Part shown: piece after piece, positions 7,636-42,931 of the stretch | Layout of the letters: every line of letters begins with the position of its first letter | Position numbering within the stretch: position 1 is the first letter of the stretch | Assembly: GCA_964512835.1 (NCBI GenBank) | Contig: CAZELA010000001.1 | Coordinates: 489,372 to 553,371 of the forward strand | Direction: 5' to 3' | From: an uncultured Candidatus Saccharibacteria bacterium | GTDB lineage: Bacteria; Patescibacteriota; Minisyncoccia; Phycocordibacterales; UBA2100 | Length of the DNA: 64,000 nucleotides | Notes under the pieces: generated by a model | The model's database searches: none | What the model was told of the DNA's origin: nothing | The model's input: only the letters and a program-made list of their open reading frames with translations | Position numbers and translations under genes: made by a program

Positions 7636-8466
7636 TCAGTCGTGATCAAGGCTGTCATTGTATCGTCGCGGTCGCGGATTCTTACGGTAATTCAATGGCT
7701 GCGCGACACTAAAGTATTCAGCGGATCCGGTAGAGTCCCCTGCGCCGGGCTCCCAGCGACTCGCCGCTTCGGCGCTTGTGCCGTACATTTTTTCGGTTTC
7801 CGCTCGAGCGTTTGCATAGAGCGCTCGCTGCACCGCGGGCATATTGGCCGCACGACGCGCACGCTCGAGCAGCTCTGCATTCACTTGTTTTGTAGCAGTC
7901 ATGATTTCCATGCCGCCTTTGTACAGCGCATATATCGCGTCGTTTTTTTCGGCTTCGTATATATCAGTCAGAACACGCTCGAGCTTCTTTTCTCTGTGGC
8001 GGCGGAGTTCTGCATCCTGCTCTTTTTCGGAGTAATACAACATATTCATCAGCCGTTCACTCAGTGCTTGGAGTTCTGCAATTTCTTTCCGTCGTCCTTC
8101 GCTCACAGGTAATAAGTACTTCGTGATTCCTGCAGCATTAATATCAGCCGACTCGCGCACTTTTTTCATCTCTTGCTGACGACGGACATTTCGTTCGGCA
8201 ATCTCGCGCAACTGAGCGGCTGTCATGCCTGCGCGTGCCGCGACCTCGTCGAGATGCTCGGGCGCAAGCTTGATGATCTGCTCCATCGGGATAGACGGGA
8301 GGAGTTGTTCACCCTTAGGAGATTTGCGGTGCGGGAGTTTTTCCACACTCAAAGTGTAACGCACATCACGAGCGTAGTTTGTGCACCCTGTTGATGCGGC
8401 ACCGCTAACCAAAGATATACAGCGCAATCGCGGCAGCCGAGAACCAGCTAAACACTGATATGGCAC
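7636..8466 (-). CDS. hypothetical alpha-helical protein
   Basis: 276-aa ORF rich in charged residues, suggesting a coiled-coil. Start uncertain (internal MEQIIKLAPEHL at about 8286 is possible). Confidence 0.4.
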   Translation of the reverse strand: MPYQCLAGSRLPRLRCISLVSGAASTGCTNYARDVRYTLSVEKLPHRKSPKGEQLLPSIPMEQIIKLAPEHLDEVAARAGMTAAQLREIAERNVRRQQEMKKVRESADINAAGITKYLLPVSEGRRKEIAELQALSERLMNMLYYSEKEQDAELRRHREKKLERVLTDIYEAEKNDAIYALYKGGMEIMTATKQVNAELLERARRAANMPAVQRALYANARAETEKMYGTSAEAASRWEPGAGDSTGSAEYFSVAQPLNYRKNPRPRRYNDSLDHD

Positions 8467-8818
8467 CGCTCACAAACAACGCCTGCTTTTCGCTCGTACC
8501 AAGTGCCGCATAGGGGCGCTCCATCGCATGATCCATGAGACGCCCGATGAGTAGCGCATTGAGCGCGAGAATCATAACGAACAGCATTTTGATATCGAAC
8601 AAAAGGTTCCCCAGCAAAAACGCGCGCTGCGGGTAAAACAAGATGAACCCGGTGATCACGAGCGACGCGAGGCCTGCCCAGATCATCAGGTGGTAGGTGC
8701 GCAGTGTTGTGTGATCGAGCGTGGTTTTGGTGCCGCGAAGCCACGAGAGCGCGTCTTTGTCGGCAATCGCCGATACGCCAAGCACAAACCCAAATGACAG
8801 TATGTGAAGCGGCACCAT
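8405..8818 (-). CDS. hypothetical integral membrane protein
   Basis: 137 aa with about 4 predicted TM helices. It overlaps the N-terminal extension of the preceding ORF, which argues for the internal start of 7636..8466. Confidence 0.45.
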   Translation of the reverse strand: MVPLHILSFGFVLGVSAIADKDALSWLRGTKTTLDHTTLRTYHLMIWAGLASLVITGFILFYPQRAFLLGNLLFDIKMLFVMILALNALLIGRLMDHAMERPYAALGTSEKQALFVSGAISVFSWFSAAAIALYIFG

Positions 8819-10194: not shown

Positions 10195-10734
10195 CTAAGC
10201 GGTCTTCTTTTTCGGGTAGCCCTTTTTCTCCTTTTTGGGCTTTGCCGCAGCGACCGGCGTTTCTTCGGCAACGGCTGCATGCACCGCTGTAGCGAGTGCC
10301 GCCTTTTGCGCAGTCGCTTCAATAGCATTGATCAGACGATCAAGTTTGGTGTTGAGGATGTCGAGCTGCTTCAAGATCGGTGCGTTGTCACTCTTGGGGA
10401 ATTCGGCACGGGTAACCGGGGCGCTTCCGTATTCGCGCTTTTGGAAGCGATCGCCGGCGCGACCCTGTGAACGAGTGTCGTCGGTCTTTACGAAGCAGTT
10501 GCGGCAAAATACCGGCTTGCCGTTGACCGGACGAAACGGTACCTCGCATGCGTCTCCGCACTTGCTGCAGGTGGCTTTGTAGAACGTGGTGGAGCGTTCG
10601 CTGCTCTCAGATCTGCGATCCGACCAATTACCCTTGCCCTTATTGGCGTAGCCCGGCTTTCCGCCAAACGACGCCTTGTGACCCCCTCCGTTAAATCGCT
10701 TGGGCCCGCCCGAGCTTCGCTTGAAATCTGCCAT
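10195..10734 (-). CDS. zinc-ribbon protein with Gly/Lys-rich disordered N-terminus
   Basis: CSKCGDAC...19 residues...CRNC, a four-Cys ribbon, with a coiled-coil C-terminus. Start taken at MADFKRSSGG. Confidence 0.5.
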   Translation of the reverse strand: MADFKRSSGGPKRFNGGGHKASFGGKPGYANKGKGNWSDRRSESSERSTTFYKATCSKCGDACEVPFRPVNGKPVFCRNCFVKTDDTRSQGRAGDRFQKREYGSAPVTRAEFPKSDNAPILKQLDILNTKLDRLINAIEATAQKAALATAVHAAVAEETPVAAAKPKKEKKGYPKKKTA

Positions 10735-10885
10735 ATGCGGGGAGTCTGCCACACTATTGACAGAATAGCTAGTAAATTGCGAAATTGTCGCGTTTACCCT
10801 TTTGCGGACCGCCTGCGCCACACATTGCACGTCGCACTGCACCGTGTAGAGTTCCAGCGGAAAACCACAGCGAGGAGTCGGCCCG

Positions 10886-11530
10886 ATGGCCAGTCGTATC
10901 GTGCAATTGAACGGAAGCTTTGCCGATCGTCATGCAGCAACTACGGCGATCACGGAAGGATTGTTTCATTTGCAAAGCGGCAGCAACTACGGCTGCTACA
11001 CCAGGCGGCAGTGGTGGCCGAATATCGCCGACTGCGATGTGATCACGGTGCGCGGCAAGACGCGGGTGTTCGAACGAATGCCCGACGAGCCGCGCGACGA
11101 GTTCAGCACCGACGGCTACTGGTCGTCGGACTACGTGGTCGTGCTCGAAAAGCCCGACACGCAGCTGTTCCTGATACCGAATGCCGTACCCACGTATCCG
11201 GCAGAAGCAGCAATGGCCCGCGGATGCACCGTGATCATCGCGCTCATGATCGCATTCTGGGCACCGACGGCGGTGGCGTTCTTGTTTAAGCAGGGACCGT
11301 GGAGTGTCGTGTACGGGTGCGTAGTGCTCGGCGTAGTGATGCTGACATCGATGTACGAATATCGCATTCGCACGTTCTTCGCCGGGATCAAAGGCTGGTG
11401 GTACGTGTACAACGCGATCCGCGCGGGCAGAGGCACCCGCGAGCACTACAAGGAGCTCGTGGCACACCTATCCGAAGCGGACCACTACACGACCGCCTCC
11501 GTGAACAAACAAATTCTTCGATGGCTCTGA
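10886..11530 (+). CDS. hypothetical membrane protein
   Basis: 214 aa with a soluble N-terminal half and two or three TM helices in the C-terminal half. Confidence 0.45.
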   Translation: MASRIVQLNGSFADRHAATTAITEGLFHLQSGSNYGCYTRRQWWPNIADCDVITVRGKTRVFERMPDEPRDEFSTDGYWSSDYVVVLEKPDTQLFLIPNAVPTYPAEAAMARGCTVIIALMIAFWAPTAVAFLFKQGPWSVVYGCVVLGVVMLTSMYEYRIRTFFAGIKGWWYVYNAIRAGRGTREHYKELVAHLSEADHYTTASVNKQILRWL

Positions 11531-11553: not shown

Positions 11554-11580
11554 AACAGCGCGGTTCCCCCGCGCTGTTTT
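11554..11580. terminator. bidirectional intrinsic terminator at the left edge of the low-GC island
   Basis: aacagcgcg-gttcccc-cgcgctgtt, a 9-bp GC stem followed by a T-run, between convergent genes. Confidence 0.55.
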
Positions 11581-11586
11581 CTCACG

Positions 11587-13827
11587 TTACGAGAAGGCAA
11601 CTGTCCCCTGTGCCTTGTTATAGATATCCAAGCGATTTCTAATCTCGACTCTTGAGACGAGCCAACCTCGCAGCTCACACTGTCTTACGAAATCGTCGAT
11701 TCTGTTCACCCCCTTTATTTCTTTTAATGTGATGACTAGACCAAATTTGAGCGCGGCGTCTCGCTTACTTAATCTTTCTTTGGCTTTAACGCTAATCCCC
11801 CACATACCCGCTCCATATACTTCGCGTGCACCAGGACGGTCGGCGAGTCTTTCGCAGATATGTTTTGTGTTATCCCACTTTCTAAATAGCGTTCTTGCGC
11901 GCCCCTCATATACGTAATGAATTTCTCCGTCGTTAGCGTTCTGGACATTTTTGTCTATGGATTTAATTCCATCACCTTTAACTCGCCCAAAATACACATC
12001 TAACTCAGAGTTGGTGTAATCCACGCCCTGATTACGTGAGCAGCTAGGAAAGTAGCAAAGAGTTGCTCTCGCGACGAAAGGATGCTTCTTATTGTGTATC
12101 GGAACCGGCAGCTGATAAGAGTAAGTTTCCCACTTTTCAGACACACCATTAATTACAAATTTAATTTCATCATCTTTTGACTGAATTACGTCCTCTATTC
12201 TTTGCGGAACAATACCGTGGCCCACGTAAGGCGCGCGTAATTCTTTAGGATCAACTCCATTCCACCCAGCGGCAGCGTCTACAATAAGCGCTTTTGCAAC
12301 CTCTCTTGTAAAGCCCATTATTTCGATTAGAAAAGCGACCTTTCTTGTTATCCAAGGTGCTGCGTAAGAAGTTCCAGACCTGTAAGACTCTCCCAACGGT
12401 GTGCAAACGCGCATGTAAGCGCCCTTGTCACCACCAAAAGTCGAGATGTCCGGTTTATTAAAGAATGAAAGAACCAGCCCCCTGCGCGAGTAAGAGGCTG
12501 GTTCTGCCATGGCGTTCACCGAGTTAACAATAATTCCATTGATGGAATCAGCGGGTGCGCCAATCATTTTTTCAACGTGACCGTCGCTCGCTTTCTTATT
12601 TGTGCCTGCGATAATAAAAATAACGTCGAGTTCGCTCTGGATACGGTCGAGGATAGCGGCTTCTGTAGATACAAAATTTGGGTTAATTTCGTTGTCTGAT
12701 CCAAGTGACACATTCCATACCTTAATGTCAGAATTCGACTCAACAATTTCGCGGATTCGTCGCATTATCGTAAACGCACTGTACCGTCCGTAAGTTGCAA
12801 CGCCAAAATGCCTGACACGGAACCGCCCGCAGCCGTCATCCAGCTCCGGATTGATGGAAGGGCCGTCGACAATAAGCGAAGTCACAGATGTCCCATGATC
12901 AAAATCACGGACGTCTTCGGGTATCTCTTTATCTGTCATTTTTTTGTAGTCGACCCACTCAGAGAAGTATGCGCCTTTATCAAAAAGCGTGTCTATCACA
13001 CCAATAATCGGCTCTCCGTTAGGTGAAGGGATTTTCTTCGTCTTCACTGTCTCCGATTTACTCTGCATCACGTCCTCATAACTTAGTTCAGAGAAATCTT
13101 CCGTTGCCATTGCAATTAGATACGGCGCTTTCGCTGCTAGCAGCGCAATTTCATCTGGATAAAGCAGGATCGTCGTATCGCTAATAATGTTGGTTTTGGC
13201 CACCTCAATACCGAGTGACTGCATCACCTTTGCTAAACTCGCTTCTGTACGATAAACAGTGATGATTGACTGCCCCTTCGTATTTGCACTGTTCTGCGGG
13301 ATCTTGAACCCCTCCACATAGTGCGAATCCACAATTACATTTGTGAAGCCAGTTTTTGAAGTTCCGTAATTCGAGAAATCTACATTTTTCTCTGCTATAT
13401 CAGATATCTCGTCATGCGTAATACGACCGCTGAACTCCGCATTCAATATTTTTATAGCGGTTTCAATTTTTGTAATTGTTTGCTGCAAACATACTTCCGT
13501 TACGTAATGTGTAATTACATGCTTAATCTCGCCCTCATTTCTAAATCGCGCCCCCACTATTGAGTTGTTAACCGGACCATTACCAGAAAAGAACCCTTGA
13601 ATTCTATTGCTCTTTGCGATTACGTCACGATAATACACATCTACTAAACACCCTTTTACAAGATCCCGTTTCGCCCAAAAATCCCTCAGTTTCTGAAGGT
13701 CGCCCTTCAGGGTGGAGAGCTTTTCGGCCGTTACTGGCTGCGCCGTCGCGGGAATATTCCGAGGCCCAGGCTTCGAGACACTCTGTCGCTGCTGAAGGAT
13801 GCCACGGAGCTGGAGTAAATCGTTCAT
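11587..13827 (-). CDS. S8 family subtilisin-like serine peptidase (IetS-like) with unknown N- and C-terminal regions
   Basis: 746 aa with an ordered Asp/His/Ser triad: GVIDTLFDK, DFDHGTSVTSLI (HGT motif) and GTSYAAPWITRKVAFL (GTSxAAP). Low GC (about 40-47%) versus about 60% in the flanks. Its ATG lies 4 nt after the upstream AAA gene stop. Confidence 0.8.
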   Translation of the reverse strand: MNDLLQLRGILQQRQSVSKPGPRNIPATAQPVTAEKLSTLKGDLQKLRDFWAKRDLVKGCLVDVYYRDVIAKSNRIQGFFSGNGPVNNSIVGARFRNEGEIKHVITHYVTEVCLQQTITKIETAIKILNAEFSGRITHDEISDIAEKNVDFSNYGTSKTGFTNVIVDSHYVEGFKIPQNSANTKGQSIITVYRTEASLAKVMQSLGIEVAKTNIISDTTILLYPDEIALLAAKAPYLIAMATEDFSELSYEDVMQSKSETVKTKKIPSPNGEPIIGVIDTLFDKGAYFSEWVDYKKMTDKEIPEDVRDFDHGTSVTSLIVDGPSINPELDDGCGRFRVRHFGVATYGRYSAFTIMRRIREIVESNSDIKVWNVSLGSDNEINPNFVSTEAAILDRIQSELDVIFIIAGTNKKASDGHVEKMIGAPADSINGIIVNSVNAMAEPASYSRRGLVLSFFNKPDISTFGGDKGAYMRVCTPLGESYRSGTSYAAPWITRKVAFLIEIMGFTREVAKALIVDAAAGWNGVDPKELRAPYVGHGIVPQRIEDVIQSKDDEIKFVINGVSEKWETYSYQLPVPIHNKKHPFVARATLCYFPSCSRNQGVDYTNSELDVYFGRVKGDGIKSIDKNVQNANDGEIHYVYEGRARTLFRKWDNTKHICERLADRPGAREVYGAGMWGISVKAKERLSKRDAALKFGLVITLKEIKGVNRIDDFVRQCELRGWLVSRVEIRNRLDIYNKAQGTVAFS

Positions 13828-13831
13828 ATAA

Positions 13832-14884
13832 CTATTCGCTCAGTTCTCGCGATACCTGACTTTTTGATACGCCGGTAAGCACCTCAATCTCTCTTACAGT
13901 GAATCCGCGACTTTGTAAGTGTTTCAAATCGTTTACGCTGTTACCCTCCTCCAGGGATTCATAGAACTTTCGCAAATAATCATATTCGCCATGTGGATCG
14001 CTAAATGCTAGAGACGTTTTAATCAAATTATTCATATCACCCGGAAAAGGTATGTGACTCATCGTTAGCAAAATCTTACGAAAGAGACGCATGTTTCGAC
14101 CTGCAAACTTAAACTTGTTTAGAAAGCGATCAAGTATGGACTCCGCTACTTCAACCAAATCATCTCGAGAGTAGCGATTGAAATTTATAACTGAATCAAA
14201 TCGGCGCAGCACTGCGCGATCAAACTGTTCAGCAAGGTTTGTCGTTGCTATGAGTACAATACTGTCACTCAAAGCATCCAGCCCCTTCAGCATCGAAGAA
14301 GTGACGCGTCCCATTTCCCGTAAATCATTCGCGTTAATTCGATCCAGTGCAATTGAATCGAGCTCATCAAAAAGAATTACGACCTTGTCGGGATGTGGAA
14401 GCTTGTTCAGCTCCTCAAAAACATGCGATAAGTTTTTTGATGTTTGCCCCAATTTACTATCAATAACTGCGTCAAAATCAATCGAAAAAAGGTCGCGATC
14501 TAGTATTCGTGCAATCTGCTTTACTGTCTCAGTTTTTCCGGTACCAGGCGCACCTACGAATAGAAATTTATTAACGCCAACCTTGTGGCCGATAGAGTTT
14601 ATAATCCCAACTATGTCGTTTTTTATCTGGGACGGTAGAGGTAACGACCTGTTTTCAGAGAGATCAATCTGCGTAAAAAAAGGCAAATCGTAATCATTGA
14701 CTTGCGGCACAAATGTGTTCGCGCCGGATAGTAGAGCCATAATGTACTGCGCTAGCTCAGAGTCCCCGCCAGCATCAAAATAACGCGCGATTTCATACGC
14801 CTCGCTCTTAAAGCCCGCATCATTTCTTTCCGCGTAGTATTTAATGAGGTTCAAAATATTTCGTTTTCGAATGTGATCCGACAT
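13832..14884 (-). CDS. classical AAA+ ATPase (IetA-like), possible degenerate C-terminal HTH
   Basis: Walker A GAPGTGKT, Walker B ILFDELD, sensor-1/SRH IATTNL..RAVLRRFD. The C-terminal FTVREIEVLTGVSKSQVSRELSE resembles sigma region-4/LuxR helix-turn-helix. Low GC. Confidence 0.8.
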   Translation of the reverse strand: MSDHIRKRNILNLIKYYAERNDAGFKSEAYEIARYFDAGGDSELAQYIMALLSGANTFVPQVNDYDLPFFTQIDLSENRSLPLPSQIKNDIVGIINSIGHKVGVNKFLFVGAPGTGKTETVKQIARILDRDLFSIDFDAVIDSKLGQTSKNLSHVFEELNKLPHPDKVVILFDELDSIALDRINANDLREMGRVTSSMLKGLDALSDSIVLIATTNLAEQFDRAVLRRFDSVINFNRYSRDDLVEVAESILDRFLNKFKFAGRNMRLFRKILLTMSHIPFPGDMNNLIKTSLAFSDPHGEYDYLRKFYESLEEGNSVNDLKHLQSRGFTVREIEVLTGVSKSQVSRELSE

Positions 14885-14985
14885 GCAGTGATTCTAGCAC
14901 ACCTGGGACAGATCACGGCCTATGTGGGACAAATTTTATCAACATGCACCTGCTCGAATATGTGAACAAGACCCCATAATGAGGC

Positions 14986-15213
14986 ATGCCCAAACAAAAA
15001 CTGATGGAGGAGCTGGTTAACAGGTACGAGGATTCGGCCATTGCCGGCAAGAGTGCCAAAGATGCAGGCGTGAGCTACAGCCCCGCCAGCAAATGCTTCA
15101 CCCTTAAATTCGATGTAGACGAGCACGAGCTAATCGCCAAGTTTCTCGCCGATCACCCGCAAGGCGGCGACGAACTCGAGCAAAACATCAAAAACTGGAT
15201 CAAGAACGGATAA
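14986..15213 (+). CDS. small hypothetical protein divergent from the AAA-S8 operon (possible regulator)
   Basis: 75-aa ORF in a 100-bp divergent intergenic region shared with the AAA gene. Intermediate GC; no recognised fold. Confidence 0.4.
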   Translation: MPKQKLMEELVNRYEDSAIAGKSAKDAGVSYSPASKCFTLKFDVDEHELIAKFLADHPQGGDELEQNIKNWIKNG

Positions 15214-15236
15214 GTTCGGATAGGTATAAAAAGCGT

Positions 15237-15270
15237 CTCCCTCGGCGTGATGCGCACACGCCGAGGGAGG
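15237..15270 (-). terminator. intrinsic terminator oriented for the minus strand
   Basis: ctccctcggcgtg-atgcgcac-acgccgagggag perfect palindrome. On the minus strand it is followed by CGCTTTTTATACC; on the plus strand it is followed by GATAGTCGC with no T-run. Confidence 0.55.
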
Positions 15271-15452
15271 ATAGTCGCTAGGAGCGATCTCCTGCGAGAC
15301 AAGAAGCTTCCCGGCCGCGGGAGGCGTGGCGCGGGCCTAAGGAACGGGCAGTACGTGGGTCCAAAAACCACGCGCGAGTTGGCCGCCCGTCGGGCGCGAC
15401 TCCTGAGCTTCGTCCGCCACCACTCTACCCTGTCGCATCCAAAAAATACATA

Positions 15453-15489
15453 TTCTCACATTCTTGCGAATATGAGAATGTTTTATACC
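15453..15489. promoter_or_regulatory. orphan copy of 37-bp quasi-palindromic operator (ArsR-type 13-2-13)
   Basis: acatattctcacattcttgcgaatatgagaatgtttt matches the site upstream of the ArsR gene at 31377..31413 at about 34 of 37 positions. Half-sites are ATTCTCAcATTCt / cGAATaTGAGAAT. Confidence 0.5.
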
Positions 15490-15490
15490 A

Positions 15491-15548
15491 ACAAAACAAA
15501 ACGGCCGCTCGTAATGAGCGGCCGGTCTGCCTAAAGGCGAAAGATCAG
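15491..15548. repeat. 58-bp direct repeat copy 1 (contains an intrinsic terminator for minus-strand genes)
   Basis: acaaaacaaaacggccgctcgtaatgagcggccggtctgcctaaaggcgaaagatcag is identical to 16294..16351. The hairpin cggccgctc-gtaat-gagcggccg is followed on the minus strand by TTTTGTTTTGT. Confidence 0.85.
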
Positions 15549-16210
15549 GTGTGCGCATACACGCCGAAGTAGCGCTTCGAGCACAGAGCCACGATCGTGA
15601 TCTGCAGCACGAAGAACGATCCCGGAATAATGGCCTCGGATGTCGACCAGTTCGGGACTGCCAGAACCCCAAACCCGCCGCCGATGAGGAACAGCATCCA
15701 CGGCCAAAACGGCTCACGATGCGGTTCATGCCACAGCGGGATCACAATCGCGACACCGCCGAGAACAACCGAGATTACCGAGAGGTAGATCGCGTAGTCG
15801 GGATCACTCTTGATCCCCCACGCCGCGACGGCAAGGGCAACGATGCCGATGCACGTCGAGTCGAGTTTGTTCCAGCCGGTAAACACATCCGACCAGTGAG
15901 ACTCTGCGCCGTTGAGACGAGCGATCTTGTAGTTCTTGCGGAATGCAAGCACCACCACAACAACGCCGCCGATCACATACGGGATCATCTGCCAGGCGAT
16001 GTTCTCGGCAGATCGCGTGTTGATGGCGTTTGCCACCATTGCCGCAAGGATCGCCATGTCGGACAAGACCCAACTGCCGATCCCCGAGATTGACGGGCGC
16101 GTGTCGTTTTTGCCGCTCACGCGCCACGCCGATACCCAGTACGGGATAAAGGCGATGGTCGAGAACACGACCGCAAGGGCCGCGTATACCTGCAGGCTAT
16201 TCAATTGCAT
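15545..16210 (-). CDS. hypothetical polytopic membrane protein (small transporter-like, about 6-7 TM)
   Basis: 221 aa, hydrophobic and Trp-rich, with GGAGG 9 nt upstream of the ATG. It has its own strong promoter and terminator module. Confidence 0.55.
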   Translation of the reverse strand: MQLNSLQVYAALAVVFSTIAFIPYWVSAWRVSGKNDTRPSISGIGSWVLSDMAILAAMVANAINTRSAENIAWQMIPYVIGGVVVVVLAFRKNYKIARLNGAESHWSDVFTGWNKLDSTCIGIVALAVAAWGIKSDPDYAIYLSVISVVLGGVAIVIPLWHEPHREPFWPWMLFLIGGGFGVLAVPNWSTSEAIIPGSFFVLQITIVALCSKRYFGVYAHT

Positions 16211-16286: not shown

Positions 16287-16293
16287 TCAGCTA

Positions 16294-16351
16294 ACAAAAC
16301 AAAACGGCCGCTCGTAATGAGCGGCCGGTCTGCCTAAAGGCGAAAGATCAG
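16294..16351. repeat. 58-bp direct repeat copy 2 (terminator module after the dapD-like gene)
   Basis: Perfect identity with 15491..15548. Confidence 0.85.
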
Positions 16352-27362: not shown

Positions 27363-27434
27363 GGCCCTATCGTCTATCGGCTAGGACACGCCCCTCTCAC
27401 GGGCGAAAGCGGGGTTCGATTCCCCGTAGGGTCA
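27363..27434 (+). tRNA. tRNA-Glu (CTC)
   Basis: Manual cloverleaf: 7-bp acceptor stem (one G-U), 5-bp anticodon stem CGCCC/GGGCG, loop CTCTCAC, T-loop TTCGATT; no encoded CCA. Confidence 0.8.
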
Positions 27435-31371: not shown

Positions 31372-31376
31372 ACGCA

Positions 31377-31413
31377 CATATTCCCACATTCTTGAGAATA
31401 TGAGAATGTCTTG
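31377..31413. promoter_or_regulatory. 37-bp quasi-palindromic operator immediately upstream of the ArsR-family gene (autoregulatory site)
   Basis: acatattcccacattcttgagaatatgagaatgtctt begins 6 bp from the start codon; 13-2-13 inverted repeat. Confidence 0.55.
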
Positions 31414-31430
31414 CAACGAAAACGACCGCA

Positions 31431-40606: not shown

Positions 40607-40619
40607 TTCTTCGTGTTTG

Positions 40620-40692
40620 TGGACCATACCGGAATCGAACCGGTCACCTCTTCCATGCCATGGAAGCGCTCTACCAAATGAGCTAATGGCCC
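40620..40692 (-). tRNA. tRNA-Ala (GGC)
   Basis: Manual fold: G3:U70 identity pair, anticodon loop ATGGCAT, T-loop TTCGATT. Confidence 0.85.
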
Positions 40693-40729
40693 GTAACGCG
40701 GACCATCGTATCAAAAAGTATCGCGAATG

Positions 40730-41230
40730 CTAAATCGCCTGGGGGTCTGTTATCGCCGGCGGATGTGAAAGGCACTGTTTCAGAGCGTCGGATTCGGTCC
40801 AGCCGCACTTTCCGCTCGCCTGAATTTCGCACGTCGCCTCGCGATAGCATGCATACTCCGGTCGAAACTCGCAGGTAGAAACACCGCCGCCGTTCGCGGC
40901 CTCTTCGGCCGAAATACAGAGCTGCATCGAACAGCCGGACACGGCACAGCCGTTCGCCACACTACCCGTTTGCGGCGGCGGCATGTGCGATACCGTTTGT
41001 GCATCATTGGTGAATGTGCGGCCGTCAGGGGTTGCGCACTGTTCCGGAGACGATTCCATGATGGGATAGCCGGCACTCTTACATTCCTCAAACGTGGAGA
41101 TGGCGTACATCTTTTGCTGCTTGGCAATGTTTGAAAGCGAGAGCATAAGCCCCGCGATAAGCGCGAGCACGACCGCGAGACCTAGGAGCATGGGAATACT
41201 TGTCTGCTTGCGCGGAGTATCGTTATCCAT
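40730..41230 (-). CDS. Cys-rich secreted hypothetical protein
   Basis: Signal/TM anchor followed by 14 Cys residues in about 120 aa. Confidence 0.45.
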   Translation of the reverse strand: MDNDTPRKQTSIPMLLGLAVVLALIAGLMLSLSNIAKQQKMYAISTFEECKSAGYPIMESSPEQCATPDGRTFTNDAQTVSHMPPPQTGSVANGCAVSGCSMQLCISAEEAANGGGVSTCEFRPEYACYREATCEIQASGKCGWTESDALKQCLSHPPAITDPQAI

Positions 41231-41352
41231 ATACGTATTGTATCAGACGTAGTTTTTTGGAGCTTCTTTCCGAAGCCGCTATAATCCCGCGTACGCACCA
41301 TGACTTCCCCCGTCGGAGGACACGGCGCGACCCATCTCCGGATGGAGAGTAC

Positions 41353-41426
41353 GCACCTTTAGCTCAGTTGGTTAGAGCGTTCGATTCACATTCGAAAGGC
41401 CTCAGGTTCGAATCCTGAAAGGTGCA
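41353..41426 (+). tRNA. tRNA-Val (CAC)
   Basis: Acceptor GCACCTT/AAGGTGC, anticodon loop TTCACAT. Confidence 0.85.
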
Positions 41427-41570
41427 CAGAAAACCTGCCCTGCGGCATGCTTTCCGGCCGGCGCAGGCAGGAGCGCTGTGAGCCCGGCAGGGCGAACCGC
41501 GTGGCGGGGTCGCGAACATTATTGAGCGGCGGCAAGATAATTATTCGTGACCACTCGATGTTTTCCTGCT
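41427..41570. repeat. degenerate copy of the tRNA-trailer element (Val locus, inverted relative to the tRNA)
   Basis: A degenerate terminator cctgccctgcggcat is followed by attattgagcggcggcaagataattatt-cgtgaccactcg-atgttttcc, matching the hairpin2 / tgaccacgg / gttttgc order of the plus-orientation Ala copies. Confidence 0.4.
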
Positions 41571-41683
41571 AGGATACGTGGCGATGAGATTTTTTGTCGG
41601 GCTCGTCGAGCCGGCAAGCTTCTCTGGAATCTTTTTGCCGGGCTGTCCGGCTTGCACATTGCAGATCAGTAAAGTCTTTTAGC

Positions 41684-41757
41684 CGGGCTGTAGTATACCG
41701 GTAGTACGCACGCTTCGGGTGCGTGTAGACTGGGTTCGATTCCCAGCAGCCCGACCA
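41684..41757 (+). tRNA. tRNA-Pro (CGG)
   Basis: Acceptor CGGGCTG/CAGCCCG, anticodon loop TTCGGGT; CCA is encoded. Confidence 0.85.
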
Positions 41758-41894
41758 AAAGACTGTACTGTAGTGCGTGTAGACGGGTCGTGCGGCGCTA
41801 CGCGCGCTCGCGCCTCACCCTGCAACTCGACACGAAAGATTCCTGAGGCCCGACAAAAGATCTCATCGATAATGCGGGCTGTAGTATACCGGTA

Positions 41895-41968
41895 GTACGC
41901 ATGGCTGGGGGTCATGTAGACCGGGTTCGATCCCCGGCAGCCCGACCATAATCCTCCGAAACGTACGC
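41895..41968 (+). tRNA. tRNA-Pro (GGG)
   Basis: Near-duplicate of the upstream tRNA-Pro with anticodon stem-loop CATGG-CTGGGGG-TCATG; CCA is encoded. Confidence 0.85.
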
Positions 41969-42132
41969 CGGGAATCTCCGGGTTCGAGTCACGCATCATT
42001 CGCTGCTGCGAATGTGCGCGACCCCGACTCGCGCCGCCGCGCTCCGTCTCTTGCGCCCTTCCCGAGCCAGGGCGCAAGCCCGGCAGCCCGACAATTTGAC
42101 TAACCGCCAATAGTGTGGCTATATAGCGCTCT

Positions 42133-42615
42133 ATGGTTATCGTACCCATATGGATGCGCGTGATTCTCGCCGCCGGCATCTGCTTCGCCTCCGGCGCTAT
42201 TGCCGCGCTGTATATGACCAGTCAGTCGCTTGGCTACTTTGGATCGCTTGATCGTCCCCTCCTGTTTGCAATGCCGATACCGGTCATCTTTTTTGCACTG
42301 GTTGTTACCTACGCAATCATTTCGATCGCATCGGCACTCATGTGGATCCACGATCCGCGCCCGTGGGATTTTCGCGGCTGGGTTCCGTTGTTTTTTACAC
42401 ACCTGCTTGTACAGGTGGGATGGCTCATACTCCTATTCGCATACAACGTCGTATTTGTCGCGATGCTGATGGCCTTCGTACTCGCGACCTATGTTTTTAT
42501 ATTGACGGCAGCGGCGTGGGAGCGCAGCAAGATCGCGTTTTGGCTTTTGCTCGTATATCTCGCATGGACGCTCTACGCGCTCGGCATGAACATCGCCGTC
42601 TGGGGAGTTAACTAG
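42133..42615 (+). CDS. TspO/MBR family membrane protein (second paralog)
   Basis: 160 aa with 5 TM helices; Trp-rich motifs (LMWIHDPRPWDFRGWVPLFF, AWTLYA). Confidence 0.55.
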   Translation: MVIVPIWMRVILAAGICFASGAIAALYMTSQSLGYFGSLDRPLLFAMPIPVIFFALVVTYAIISIASALMWIHDPRPWDFRGWVPLFFTHLLVQVGWLILLFAYNVVFVAMLMAFVLATYVFILTAAAWERSKIAFWLLLVYLAWTLYALGMNIAVWGVN

Positions 42616-42616
42616 C

Positions 42617-42846
42617 ATTGTGGGCCACAAATATTTTAGTCGCCGTCGCGACTAAAATTTTCTGACCACGGCGCGCCCGTCCACAAACCGAAACAGTCTG
42701 CCGCAGGGCAGGTTTTTATTTGTGGGTCACCGATAATTTCCTCGCCGCCGCTCGGAAATTTCTCTGACCACGGCTCGCCCGTTTTGCGTGCTCGCAAAAC
42801 ATGGCTCCGCCCGTCCACAAACCGAAAAAGTCTGCCGCAGGGCAGA
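42617..42846. repeat. tRNA-trailer structured repeat element, 1 degenerate + 1 full copy (Ala-CGC locus)
   Basis: The 42712..42846 copy is about 98% identical to 40472..40606. The 42617..42711 copy keeps the outer motifs but replaces the central hairpin with ttttagtcgc-cgtc-gcgactaaaa. Confidence 0.8.
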
Positions 42847-42860
42847 CTTTTTCGTGTTTG

Positions 42861-42931
42861 TGGACCTATCGAGAATCGAACTCGAGACTGTGCAATGCGA
42901 ATGCACCGGTATACCACTTACCTATAGGCCC
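42861..42931 (-). tRNA. tRNA-Ala (CGC)
   Basis: G3:U70 identity pair, anticodon loop TTCGCAT. Confidence 0.85.

Follow-up and report, generated by a model that had tools for sequence, protein, structure and literature searches.

The window analysed here, a 64,000-nt stretch of a Candidatus Saccharibacteria contig, contains a compact two-gene cargo in which ietA, coding for an AAA+ ATPase, is followed by ietS, coding for a subtilase of the S8 family. The cargo reaches from 101 nt upstream of ietA to 7 nt past ietS. Its features, together with an open reading frame in the adjoining flank, are as follows.

11580-14985, no strand assigned: ietAS cargo, 3406 bp, consisting of ietA, ietS and the promoter region and nothing else
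11587-13827, minus strand: ietS, 746-aa cytoplasmic S8 subtilase, putative toxin/effector
11590-12207, minus strand: C-terminal domain of IetS, beta-rich (about residues 541-746) and a homologue of the corresponding domain in canonical IteS
13093-13827, minus strand: N-terminal domain of IetS (residues 1-245), confidently folded (pLDDT 80-93)
13828-13831, minus strand: ietA-ietS spacer of 4 nt (TAG ttat ATG)
13832-14884, minus strand: ietA, 350-aa classical-clade AAA+ ATPase, putative antitoxin/regulator
13835-13912, minus strand: C-terminal helix-turn-helix (HTH)-like module of IetA (residues 325-350), GFTVREIEVLTGVSKSQVSRELSE, from alignment A2 and the AF2 model
14357-14380, minus strand: Walker B motif VILFDELD of IetA (residues 169-176), invariant in the alignment
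14429-14467, minus strand: motif at the pore-loop position of IetA, VIDSKLGQTSKNL, without an aromatic residue
14531-14554, minus strand: Walker A motif GAPGTGKT of IetA (residues 111-118), invariant in alignment A2
14891-14896, minus strand: -10-like hexamer TAGAAT, 6 nt ahead of the ietA ATG
14904-14931, minus strand: paired direct repeat tGTCCCA-N14-tGTCCCA, 21 nt from start to start, candidate IetA operator
14986-15213: orf75, a real ORF of 75 aa, outside the island in the host flank

IetA matches the Pfam AAA family at 1.6e-25, its AF2 model resembles p97, katanin, Rpt and Trip13, and its homologues share 70-79% identity. The Walker A, Walker B and RRFD motifs (the last at residues 227-230) were found where the earlier note had placed them, as was the length of 350 aa, and the catalytic residues K117, D173/E174 and R227/R228 are intact and invariant, conservation in the two proteins being judged on two alignments, one of 42 sequences and one of 41. 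The motif at the pore-loop position is shared with canonical IteA, where it reads SLLGQTSRN. The C-terminal module is near-invariant in alignment A2 and is modelled as three short helices (pLDDT 82-87); its recognition helix, SKSQVSR, is invariant, and sub-threshold Pfam matches to MarR_2, HTH_31, HTH_23, HTH_3 and Xre-like families fall on this end of the protein. Such a module had been thought unusual for IetA. It is not, as the PADLOC IetA model spans the HTH region and a similar motif of HTH type stands at the C-terminus of an annotated canonical IteA.

IetS matches Pfam Peptidase_S8 at 7e-27. The ordered and complete triad read from the sequence at the outset was confirmed, as was the length of 746 aa: D279 (in GVIDT), H311 (in DFDHGTS) and S487 (in GTSYAAP), along with the oxyanion-hole residue N410, are intact and invariant. 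The possibility of a secreted subtilase had also been raised, and a search of IetS for a signal peptide or transmembrane segment found neither. The N-terminal domain, separated from the core by a disordered linker (residues 247-263), matched no known fold or family and no Pfam entry; an exhaustive search located it solely at the N-terminus of IetS-like proteins of about 735-770 aa. The ATPase stop does lie 4 nt ahead of the subtilase ATG, and in homologous loci the two genes are 3-5 nt apart or overlap by 8 nt, an arrangement consistent with translational coupling.

The identification of the pair as an IetAS-like ATPase/S8-protease defence module, put forward in the earlier note, is supported by its best family matches and by its pairing. 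Searches with the PADLOC IetA/IetS and the Pfam AAA and Peptidase_S8 profiles all gave matches, and the PADLOC IetA and IetS families were the best for the two proteins: IetA matches PDLC02196 at 1.5e-44 (residues 9-349 on model positions 6-369 of 374) and three more IetA models at 1e-21 to 1e-33, while IetS matches PDLC02197 at 1.1e-62 over residues 243-733 and six more IetS models. The best NCBIfam matches are likewise IteA and IteS. The scores against the equivalogs IteA_antiphage (125.5 bits, cut-off 510) and IteS_antiphage (155.1 bits, cut-off 900) fall far below the cut-offs; the pair is therefore not an ortholog of the E. coli type, yet it is still a member of the family. Profile alignment by hhalign with the annotated Acidovorax IteA/IteS pair gave E = 9e-23 and 1.7e-22. 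Searches of PDB sequences returned no solved IetA/IetS relative past generic AAA proteins and subtilases. Two other systems with related parts were considered and rejected: for CBASS-associated Trip13/HORMA, the TRIP13 model scores 5.8e-16, far weaker than IetA, and the cassette has no HORMA or cyclase gene; for type VII secretion EccA and mycosin, the scores are 23 bits (cut-off 467) and 17 (cut-off 279), and IetS has no transmembrane segment or signal peptide.

The order of the two genes, adjacent and co-directional with ietA first, is that of IetAS in PADLOC and of Gao_Iet in DefenseFinder. It is kept elsewhere: in 77 of 80 metagenomic and 12 of 13 viral loci, ietS is the next gene after ietA, so that the expected co-occurrence of the two genes holds in essentially all homologous loci. 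The subfamily defined by a 350-aa IetA and an IetS of about 746 aa spans Patescibacteria, Mollicutes, Firmicutes plasmids and prophages. Its members are annotated by NCBI merely as "AAA family ATPase / S8 family peptidase", and a large, coherent IetAS subfamily has now been delimited behind these generic labels. The cassette itself is ordinary, being one further IetAS module.

It is worth setting the cassette beside its better-known relatives. The canonical pair of Acidovorax sp. T1 plasmid p1-T1 (WP_054257478.1/WP_054257489.1) is likewise a tightly coupled ATPase and protease, in that order and of similar lengths, and hhalign gives a probability of 99.5 for both proteins. Its IteA has a homologous AAA core, including the LGQTS(K/R)N motif, and an HTH-like C-terminus as IetA has here, and its IteS has homologous subtilase and C-terminal beta domains; identity is about 35% for the IetA core and about 25% for IetS. 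The difference lies at the front of the protease: IetS residues 271-730 align with canonical IteS 263-745, whereas the N-terminal 270 residues remain unaligned in this comparison with a single canonical sequence, and the first 245 or so show no detectable similarity to it. That subfamily-specific N-terminal domain is shared with a 755-aa S8 peptidase of Ureaplasma. Closer at hand is a pair on a C. perfringens plasmid (NZ_CP148620.1, WP_338836741.1/WP_338836692.1), 64% (IetA) and 55% (IetS) identical over full length, which also has the 4-nt spacer and an upstream paired GTCCC motif; it is plasmid-borne beside parAB and generically annotated, whereas the window cassette is chromosomal. The TA132/133 pair of Mycoplasma mycoides (PMC8562856), compared by size and description, has proteins of 353 and 757 aa against 350 and 746 aa here, also with the antitoxin gene upstream and in a reduced-genome host, and has been described purely as a toxin-antitoxin (TA) pair. 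The ietHAS system of Liu-DS4 (PMC13069673) has the IetA and IetS core in common but requires an extra SNF2 helicase, IetH; the window cassette has no third gene. In ietHAS, defence needs the protease activity and IetA acts as an antitoxin (PMC13069673).

The surroundings of the cassette tell how it came to be there. The low-GC island described in the earlier note was borne out: GC is 0.446 in 11580-14985 against 0.555 in the remaining window (z = -12.4 against other 3.4-kb windows), no other stretch of that length in the 64 kb has a lower GC, and GC3 is 0.43-0.46 in ietAS against 0.57-0.78 in host genes. Its limits had to be moved, from 11554-15270 to 11580-14985, according to the break in homology with a close Saccharibacteria relative (L012), which ends at 11579 and restarts at 14986. 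The two hairpins that had been taken for the island borders do exist, one at 11554-11580 with its T-run on the plus strand, after a 214-aa ORF, and the other, upstream of the cassette, at 15237-15269, a terminator on the minus strand. They are host features, because they are located in flanking sequence conserved with this relative that has no ietAS, and we rejected them as edges of the island.

In L012, the closest relative genome, the flanks are about 90% identical and the site, with the same junctions, holds a different cargo of 2971 bp: an AAA_21 ATPase with a DUF4276 protein, a pair that matches AbiLi, AriA and HEC-01 in PADLOC. With a different defence-like pair at the exact site, the ietAS cassette is therefore swapped cargo in a variable locus. 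Alternating defence-like pairs at one site are the typical pattern of a defence hotspot. The horizontal acquisition proposed earlier is thus supported both by the foreign GC and GC3 and by the other cargo in L012, and the insert is a horizontally acquired defence cassette, not a new type of system. Little has been described of immunity in Saccharibacteria, epibionts with reduced genomes, and the exchange of a defence/TA cassette in and out of one of their chromosomal loci is now documented. Repeats, an integrase or a tRNA were looked for at both junctions and none was found, the closest tRNA being 12 kb away; nor were phage genes found at the junctions or in the cargo. Further alleles of the site were sought in metagenomes with the 214-aa flank protein as query, which gave no matches, and exact-match look-ups of that protein and of the 75-aa one yielded solely ietAS-bearing contigs of the same population. 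The identity profile of the flanks against L012 is mosaic (0.64-1.0), with nothing special around the island.

The same comparison disposes of orf75 as a regulator of the module, a role suggested for it in the earlier note. Its protein is identical in L012, where it adjoins different cargo, and it also occurs in three other relatives without ietAS (L214-L216), four relatives in all. No homologue was found by tblastn in 81 + 13 other ietAS loci (94 in total), no family match in Pfam, PADLOC, NCBIfam or PHROGs, and its GC3 of 0.68 is host-like. orf75 belongs to the host flank.

How might the cassette act? Studies of other members offer a guide. The protease is the toxin and the ATPase the antitoxin, and attempts to make an ietA mutant did not succeed (PMC13069673). 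The Mycoplasma pair of a 353-aa AAA protein and a 757-aa subtilase is an experimentally validated TA pair, in which IetS is toxic alone and is neutralised by active IetA (PMC8562856). The ietAS of B. cereus works through abortive infection, with a phage protein as the trigger (bioRxiv 10.1101/2022.08.27.505566), and phage defence by other IetAS members needs the active sites of both protease and ATPase (PMC13069673; 10.1101/2022.08.27.505566). From these published systems and the anatomy of the window cassette, we infer that IetS would be a cytoplasmic subtilase toxin held inactive by IetA, an ATP-hydrolysing AAA+ hexamer, whose C-terminal HTH would sit on the TGTCCCA repeats and repress the operon. 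A phage protein, or the phage-induced loss or inhibition of IetA, would set IetS free to cleave cellular or phage targets and so abort the infection; the addiction property of the pair would also stabilise the cassette. We are confident, if short of certain, that the cassette is a functional-looking IetAS (Gao_Iet, IteAS) member of a divergent but very widespread subfamily, in which an ATPase-restrained protease toxin would abort infection.

An unlikely alternative is that the pair is mainly an addiction module that stabilises its DNA segment, with no phage defence in this host. IetAS was originally reported as a plasmid-stability TA system, as the citing passages of PMC13069673 and PMC8562856 have it, close homologues lie beside parAB on C. 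perfringens plasmids, and the Mycoplasma homologue acts as a chromosomal TA pair (PMC8562856). The two roles are compatible, however, with other IetAS members blocking phage by abortive infection (10.1101/2022.08.27.505566), and the pair with AbiLi, AriA and HEC-01 matches at the same site in L012 speaks for defence. It is very improbable that the cassette is a prophage or mobile-element remnant, or a moron that serves the element and not the cell, for instance in superinfection exclusion: the subfamily is indeed carried on 13 IMG/VR contigs and both proteins have PHROGs matches (phrog_3757 at 4.5e-75, phrog_3964 at 6.4e-118), but the cargo is solely ietA and ietS, and at its junctions there is neither an integrase or other phage gene nor a repeat. 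A housekeeping quality-control or secreted subtilase that stands by chance beside an unrelated AAA protein is scarcely credible, even with generic AAA and Peptidase_S8 as the sole Pfam matches, given the strict pairing over more than 90 loci, the lack of the pair in close relatives, the foreign base composition, the missing signal peptide and the IetA/IetS models as best matches.

The mechanism proposed above includes repression by IetA at its own promoter. The paired TGTCCCA motif has a single occurrence in the window, upstream of ietA. Among homologous loci, 70 of 78 from metagenomes and 11 of 13 on viral contigs have the pair (GTCCC, spacing 20-21 nt) ahead of ietA, against 0 matches in 1.26 Mb of background. 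It flanks the -35 element on both sides and touches the -10 element; between the two repeats of the window cassette, the hexamer ATAGGC makes a poor -35. A narrow literature search found no description of this motif upstream of ietA in work on IetAS. The pair, overlapping the promoter, is likely the IetA operator, and the co-conservation of motif and HTH is what points to binding of the one by the other. The 6-nt spacing from the -10-like hexamer to the ietA ATG, identical in L010 and L103, suggests a leaderless ietA mRNA. The distance between the two boxes over the promoter is two helical turns.

We would tentatively go one step further, with rather less than even confidence, and propose that IetA is a DNA-bound AAA+ autorepressor whose C-terminal HTH rests on the two TGTCCCA boxes and ties expression of the operon to the state of the ATPase. 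The release of IetS, too, would then possibly follow the oligomeric or nucleotide state of IetA, phage interference with DNA or transcription could be an alternative trigger, and Patescibacteria-type copies would have a leaderless ietA message. If true, autorepression would provide the first cis-regulatory element to be defined for the IetAS family, together with a sensing route open to test, and IetAS would count as a major defence/TA module in the ultra-small bacteria of the CPR. In any case, the conserved TGTCCCA pair and the invariant HTH are a concrete handle on IetAS regulation. The canonical Acidovorax locus differs in this respect, having a TGATTCA-N14-TGAATCA inverted repeat in place of the TGTCCCA pair.

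The gene pair in the low-GC island of the window is a member of a divergent, widespread subfamily of the IetAS (or IteAS) family. Its genes and upstream elements are the following.

13832-14884, minus strand: ietA, encoding a 350-aa AAA+ ATPase
11587-13827, minus strand: ietS, encoding a 746-aa S8 subtilase
14931-14904, upstream of ietA: tGTCCCA-N14-tGTCCCA pair
14896-14891, after the GTCCCA pair and 6 nt before the ietA ATG: TAGAAT

The two genes are separated by TAG-ttat-ATG. An earlier note had read them as an AAA ATPase and a protease with an ordered subtilase triad, and both readings were borne out: IetA carries Walker A GAPGTGKT (111-118), Walker B VILFDELD (169-176), sensor-1 TTN and RRFD, IetS has D279, H311, N410 and S487, each in canonical subtilase context, and Pfam assigns AAA (1.6e-25) and Peptidase_S8 (7e-27). 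The proposed IetAS-like identity was likewise upheld by PADLOC, which calls the ATPase IetA (PDLC02196, 1.5e-44, residues 9-349 of 350) and the protease IetS (PDLC02197, 1.1e-62, residues 243-733), with additional IetA/IetS models also matching the pair. The alternative of a secreted subtilase was checked, and IetS has no signal peptide. The best NCBIfam matches are the IteA/IteS models, with scores so far under the equivalog cut-offs that the pair is not an E. coli-type ortholog.

As a canonical reference for profile comparison we used the annotated iteA/iteS pair of an Acidovorax plasmid. The AAA core of IetA (23-258) aligns with this IteA at E = 9e-23, and the protease and C-terminal domain of IetS (271-730) align with IteS at E = 1.7e-22, but the N-terminal ~270 residues of IetS remain unaligned. 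PDB sequence searches found no solved structures of IetA or IetS, only generic AAA proteins and subtilases. The AlphaFold model of IetA (pLDDT 78) shows the AAA fold of the classical clade, with three short helices at the end; in that of IetS (pLDDT 75), residues 20-245 form a confidently predicted N-terminal domain, which a disordered linker (247-263) joins to the subtilase domain, and a beta-rich C-terminal domain follows. The N-terminal domain was found in 378 cluster representatives, only at the N-terminus of IetS-like proteins of ~735-770 aa; this subfamily-specific domain may serve as a prodomain-like inhibitor or as a docking site for IetA. One representative is a Ureaplasma protein, which would fit the experimentally validated Mycoplasma AAA/subtilase toxin-antitoxin pair of 353 and 757 aa (PMC8562856). 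The pore-loop position of IetA reads SKLGQTSKN, conserved with SLLGQTSRN in canonical IteA and without an aromatic residue; speculatively, IetA may thus not be a classical threading unfoldase.

Full-length homologs are abundant (>6,000 matches per protein), at 55-68% identity for IetS and 70-79% for IetA. They occur in Patescibacteria MAGs (Shapiro-, Magasanik-, Nomura-, Azam- and Saccharibacteria), in Janthinobacterium and Acidithrix, on plasmids of C. perfringens, Carnobacterium and Macrococcus, and on 13 IMG/VR viral contigs; both proteins are also represented in PHROGs, in families whose function is unknown. The two genes also co-occur elsewhere: among 80 metagenomic loci found with an IetA profile, ietS directly follows ietA in 77, at a spacing of a few nt or with a short overlap, and the other three contigs are truncated. 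One metagenome contig from the same population carries a truncated ietS of 374 aa with smpB directly after it (contig positions 1963-3487); this contig is a deletion/rearrangement variant or else an assembly error.

Published members of the family have been studied experimentally. The IetS protease is the toxin and is required for defence, and a construct with inactive ietA was unobtainable (PMC13069673). In a minimal Mycoplasma, loss of the AAA gene alone is lethal, the protease being toxic unless neutralised (PMC8562856). In B. cereus, an ietAS works through abortive infection, and expression of one phage protein makes it toxic (10.1101/2022.08.27.505566). From these members and the anatomy seen here, a model of restraint, release and cleavage is most likely: IetA hexamers would hold IetS in check in an ATP-dependent manner and repress the promoter, phage interference would set IetS free, and free IetS would cut essential targets. 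The original finding is real and its main interpretation correct, although the pair adds a member to a known family rather than a new type of system, and its interest is modest.

The C-terminal segment of IetA, GFTVREIEVLTGVSKSQVSRELSE, is nearly invariant across the subfamily and gives sub-threshold matches to many helix-turn-helix (HTH) families. It had been taken as unusual for IetA; canonical IteA ends in a similar HTH-like motif, which makes it a family feature instead. Of 78 metagenomic loci, 70 have the GTCCCA pair upstream of ietA, with the two copies spaced 20 or 21 nt start-to-start, and it does not occur in the other 1.26 Mb of sequence from these loci; the C. perfringens plasmid also has it, as do 11 of the 13 viral loci. 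At most loci a TTGACA -35 element lies between its two copies and a TATAAT -10 element adjoins it. The Acidovorax locus lacks the pair and has an inverted repeat instead. We infer that the paired motif is a candidate IetA operator through which the operon would be autorepressed, the common arrangement with type II antitoxins. The -10-to-ATG spacing of 6 nt, in the window and in two homologous loci (L010 and L103), suggests that ietA mRNA may be leaderless in Patescibacteria-type copies. Of the features described, only this operator-like motif and the CPR context are absent from the limited IetAS literature examined.

The low-GC island proposed earlier was also confirmed, with limits at 11580-14985, and its proposed horizontal acquisition was supported. 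GC is 0.446 over this interval vs 0.555 elsewhere, the lowest 3.4-kb stretch in the window (z = -12.4), and GC3 of the cassette genes is 0.43-0.46 vs 0.57-0.78 in neighbouring genes. Besides ietA and ietS the cassette contains only 101 nt before ietA and 7 nt after ietS, and the exact IetS protein was detected in metagenome contigs that have the same neighbours and nowhere else. L012, from a related uncultured Candidatus Saccharibacteria MAG, has a flanking DapD 96% identical to that of the window and is ~90% identical in nucleotides as far as 11579 and from 14986 onwards; in L012 the two junctions enclose 2971 bp of different low-GC DNA.

L012 12503-15473: alternative cargo, GC 0.34-0.46
374-aa ORF: AAA_21 ATPase, PADLOC AbiLi (9e-20), AriA (3e-15) and HEC-01A
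279-aa ORF: weakly DUF4276-like, PADLOC HEC-01B (4.5e-8)
two small membrane ORFs, one a 115-aa TM ORF

The L012 cargo is probably a HEC-01/PARIS-like defence pair; Pfam DUF4276 scores 23.1 bits on the 279-aa protein, under the gathering cut-off of 30.2. Since different cargo lies between the same junctions, the site is a variable, defence-type locus, and the ietAS cassette in this Saccharibacteria chromosome is swapped cargo. Neither an integrase nor a tRNA nor a repeat was found at the cassette junctions, and homologous recombination in the flanks would be the simplest explanation of the exchange. Flank identity to L012 is mosaic, reaching 1.00 over 10510-11109 but only 0.64 over 7913-8312 (in the 7913-8512 region), a pattern that indicates frequent recombination in the population. 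The tRNA genes of the window, a five-tRNA cluster at 40619-42931 (Ala-GGC, Val-CAC, Pro-CGG, Pro-GGG, Ala-CGC) and tRNA-Glu at 27363, are not near the island.

The 75-aa ORF (14986-15213), suggested in the earlier note as a regulator of the module, turned out to be a flank gene. L012 homology restarts exactly at its ATG, so that its whole upstream region comes from the resident cargo. Between the window and L012 it differs at five nucleotides, each at a third codon position, and the encoded protein is unchanged, which marks the ORF as a real gene. As a module component it was rejected: its GC3 is host-like, it is present without ietAS in four relatives (L012, L214, L215 and L216), and no homolog was found in any of 94 other ietAS loci. 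Its homologs form 14 clusters, all within the lineage, and belong to no family. A -10-like hexamer lies 5-7 nt before its ATG (CATAAT in the window, TAAGAT in L012), and its mRNA is possibly leaderless. The hairpins once placed at the island borders do exist, at 11554-11580 and 15237-15269, but both lie within conserved flank and do not bound the island; the latter has the orientation of a terminator on the minus strand and lies upstream of the cassette.

Several repeats were observed nearby. A perfect 59-nt direct repeat (15490-15548 and 16293-16351), each copy beginning at a stop codon and including the same rho-independent terminator, flanks a 221-aa membrane ORF (15545-16210) that closely follows dapD. 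Both copies are also in L012, where they share another loop variant (CATTGCGAG vs CGTAATGAG in the window); in each of the two genomes the copies therefore evolve in concert. A second small gene inserted with the upstream gene's terminator duplicated is found in L012, where a ~83-nt duplication of the 3' end and terminator of the 214-aa gene (L012 14758-14837 and 15474-15556) flanks a 202-aa membrane ORF. Such duplications hint at a recurrent insertion mechanism in the lineage. An AT-rich hairpin, ATTCTCATATTCGCAAGAATGTGAGAAT (15452-15479), adjoins the 59-nt repeat; together with a related sequence at 31376-31423, which matches L012 11992-12042, it may represent a small dispersed repeat or terminator family.
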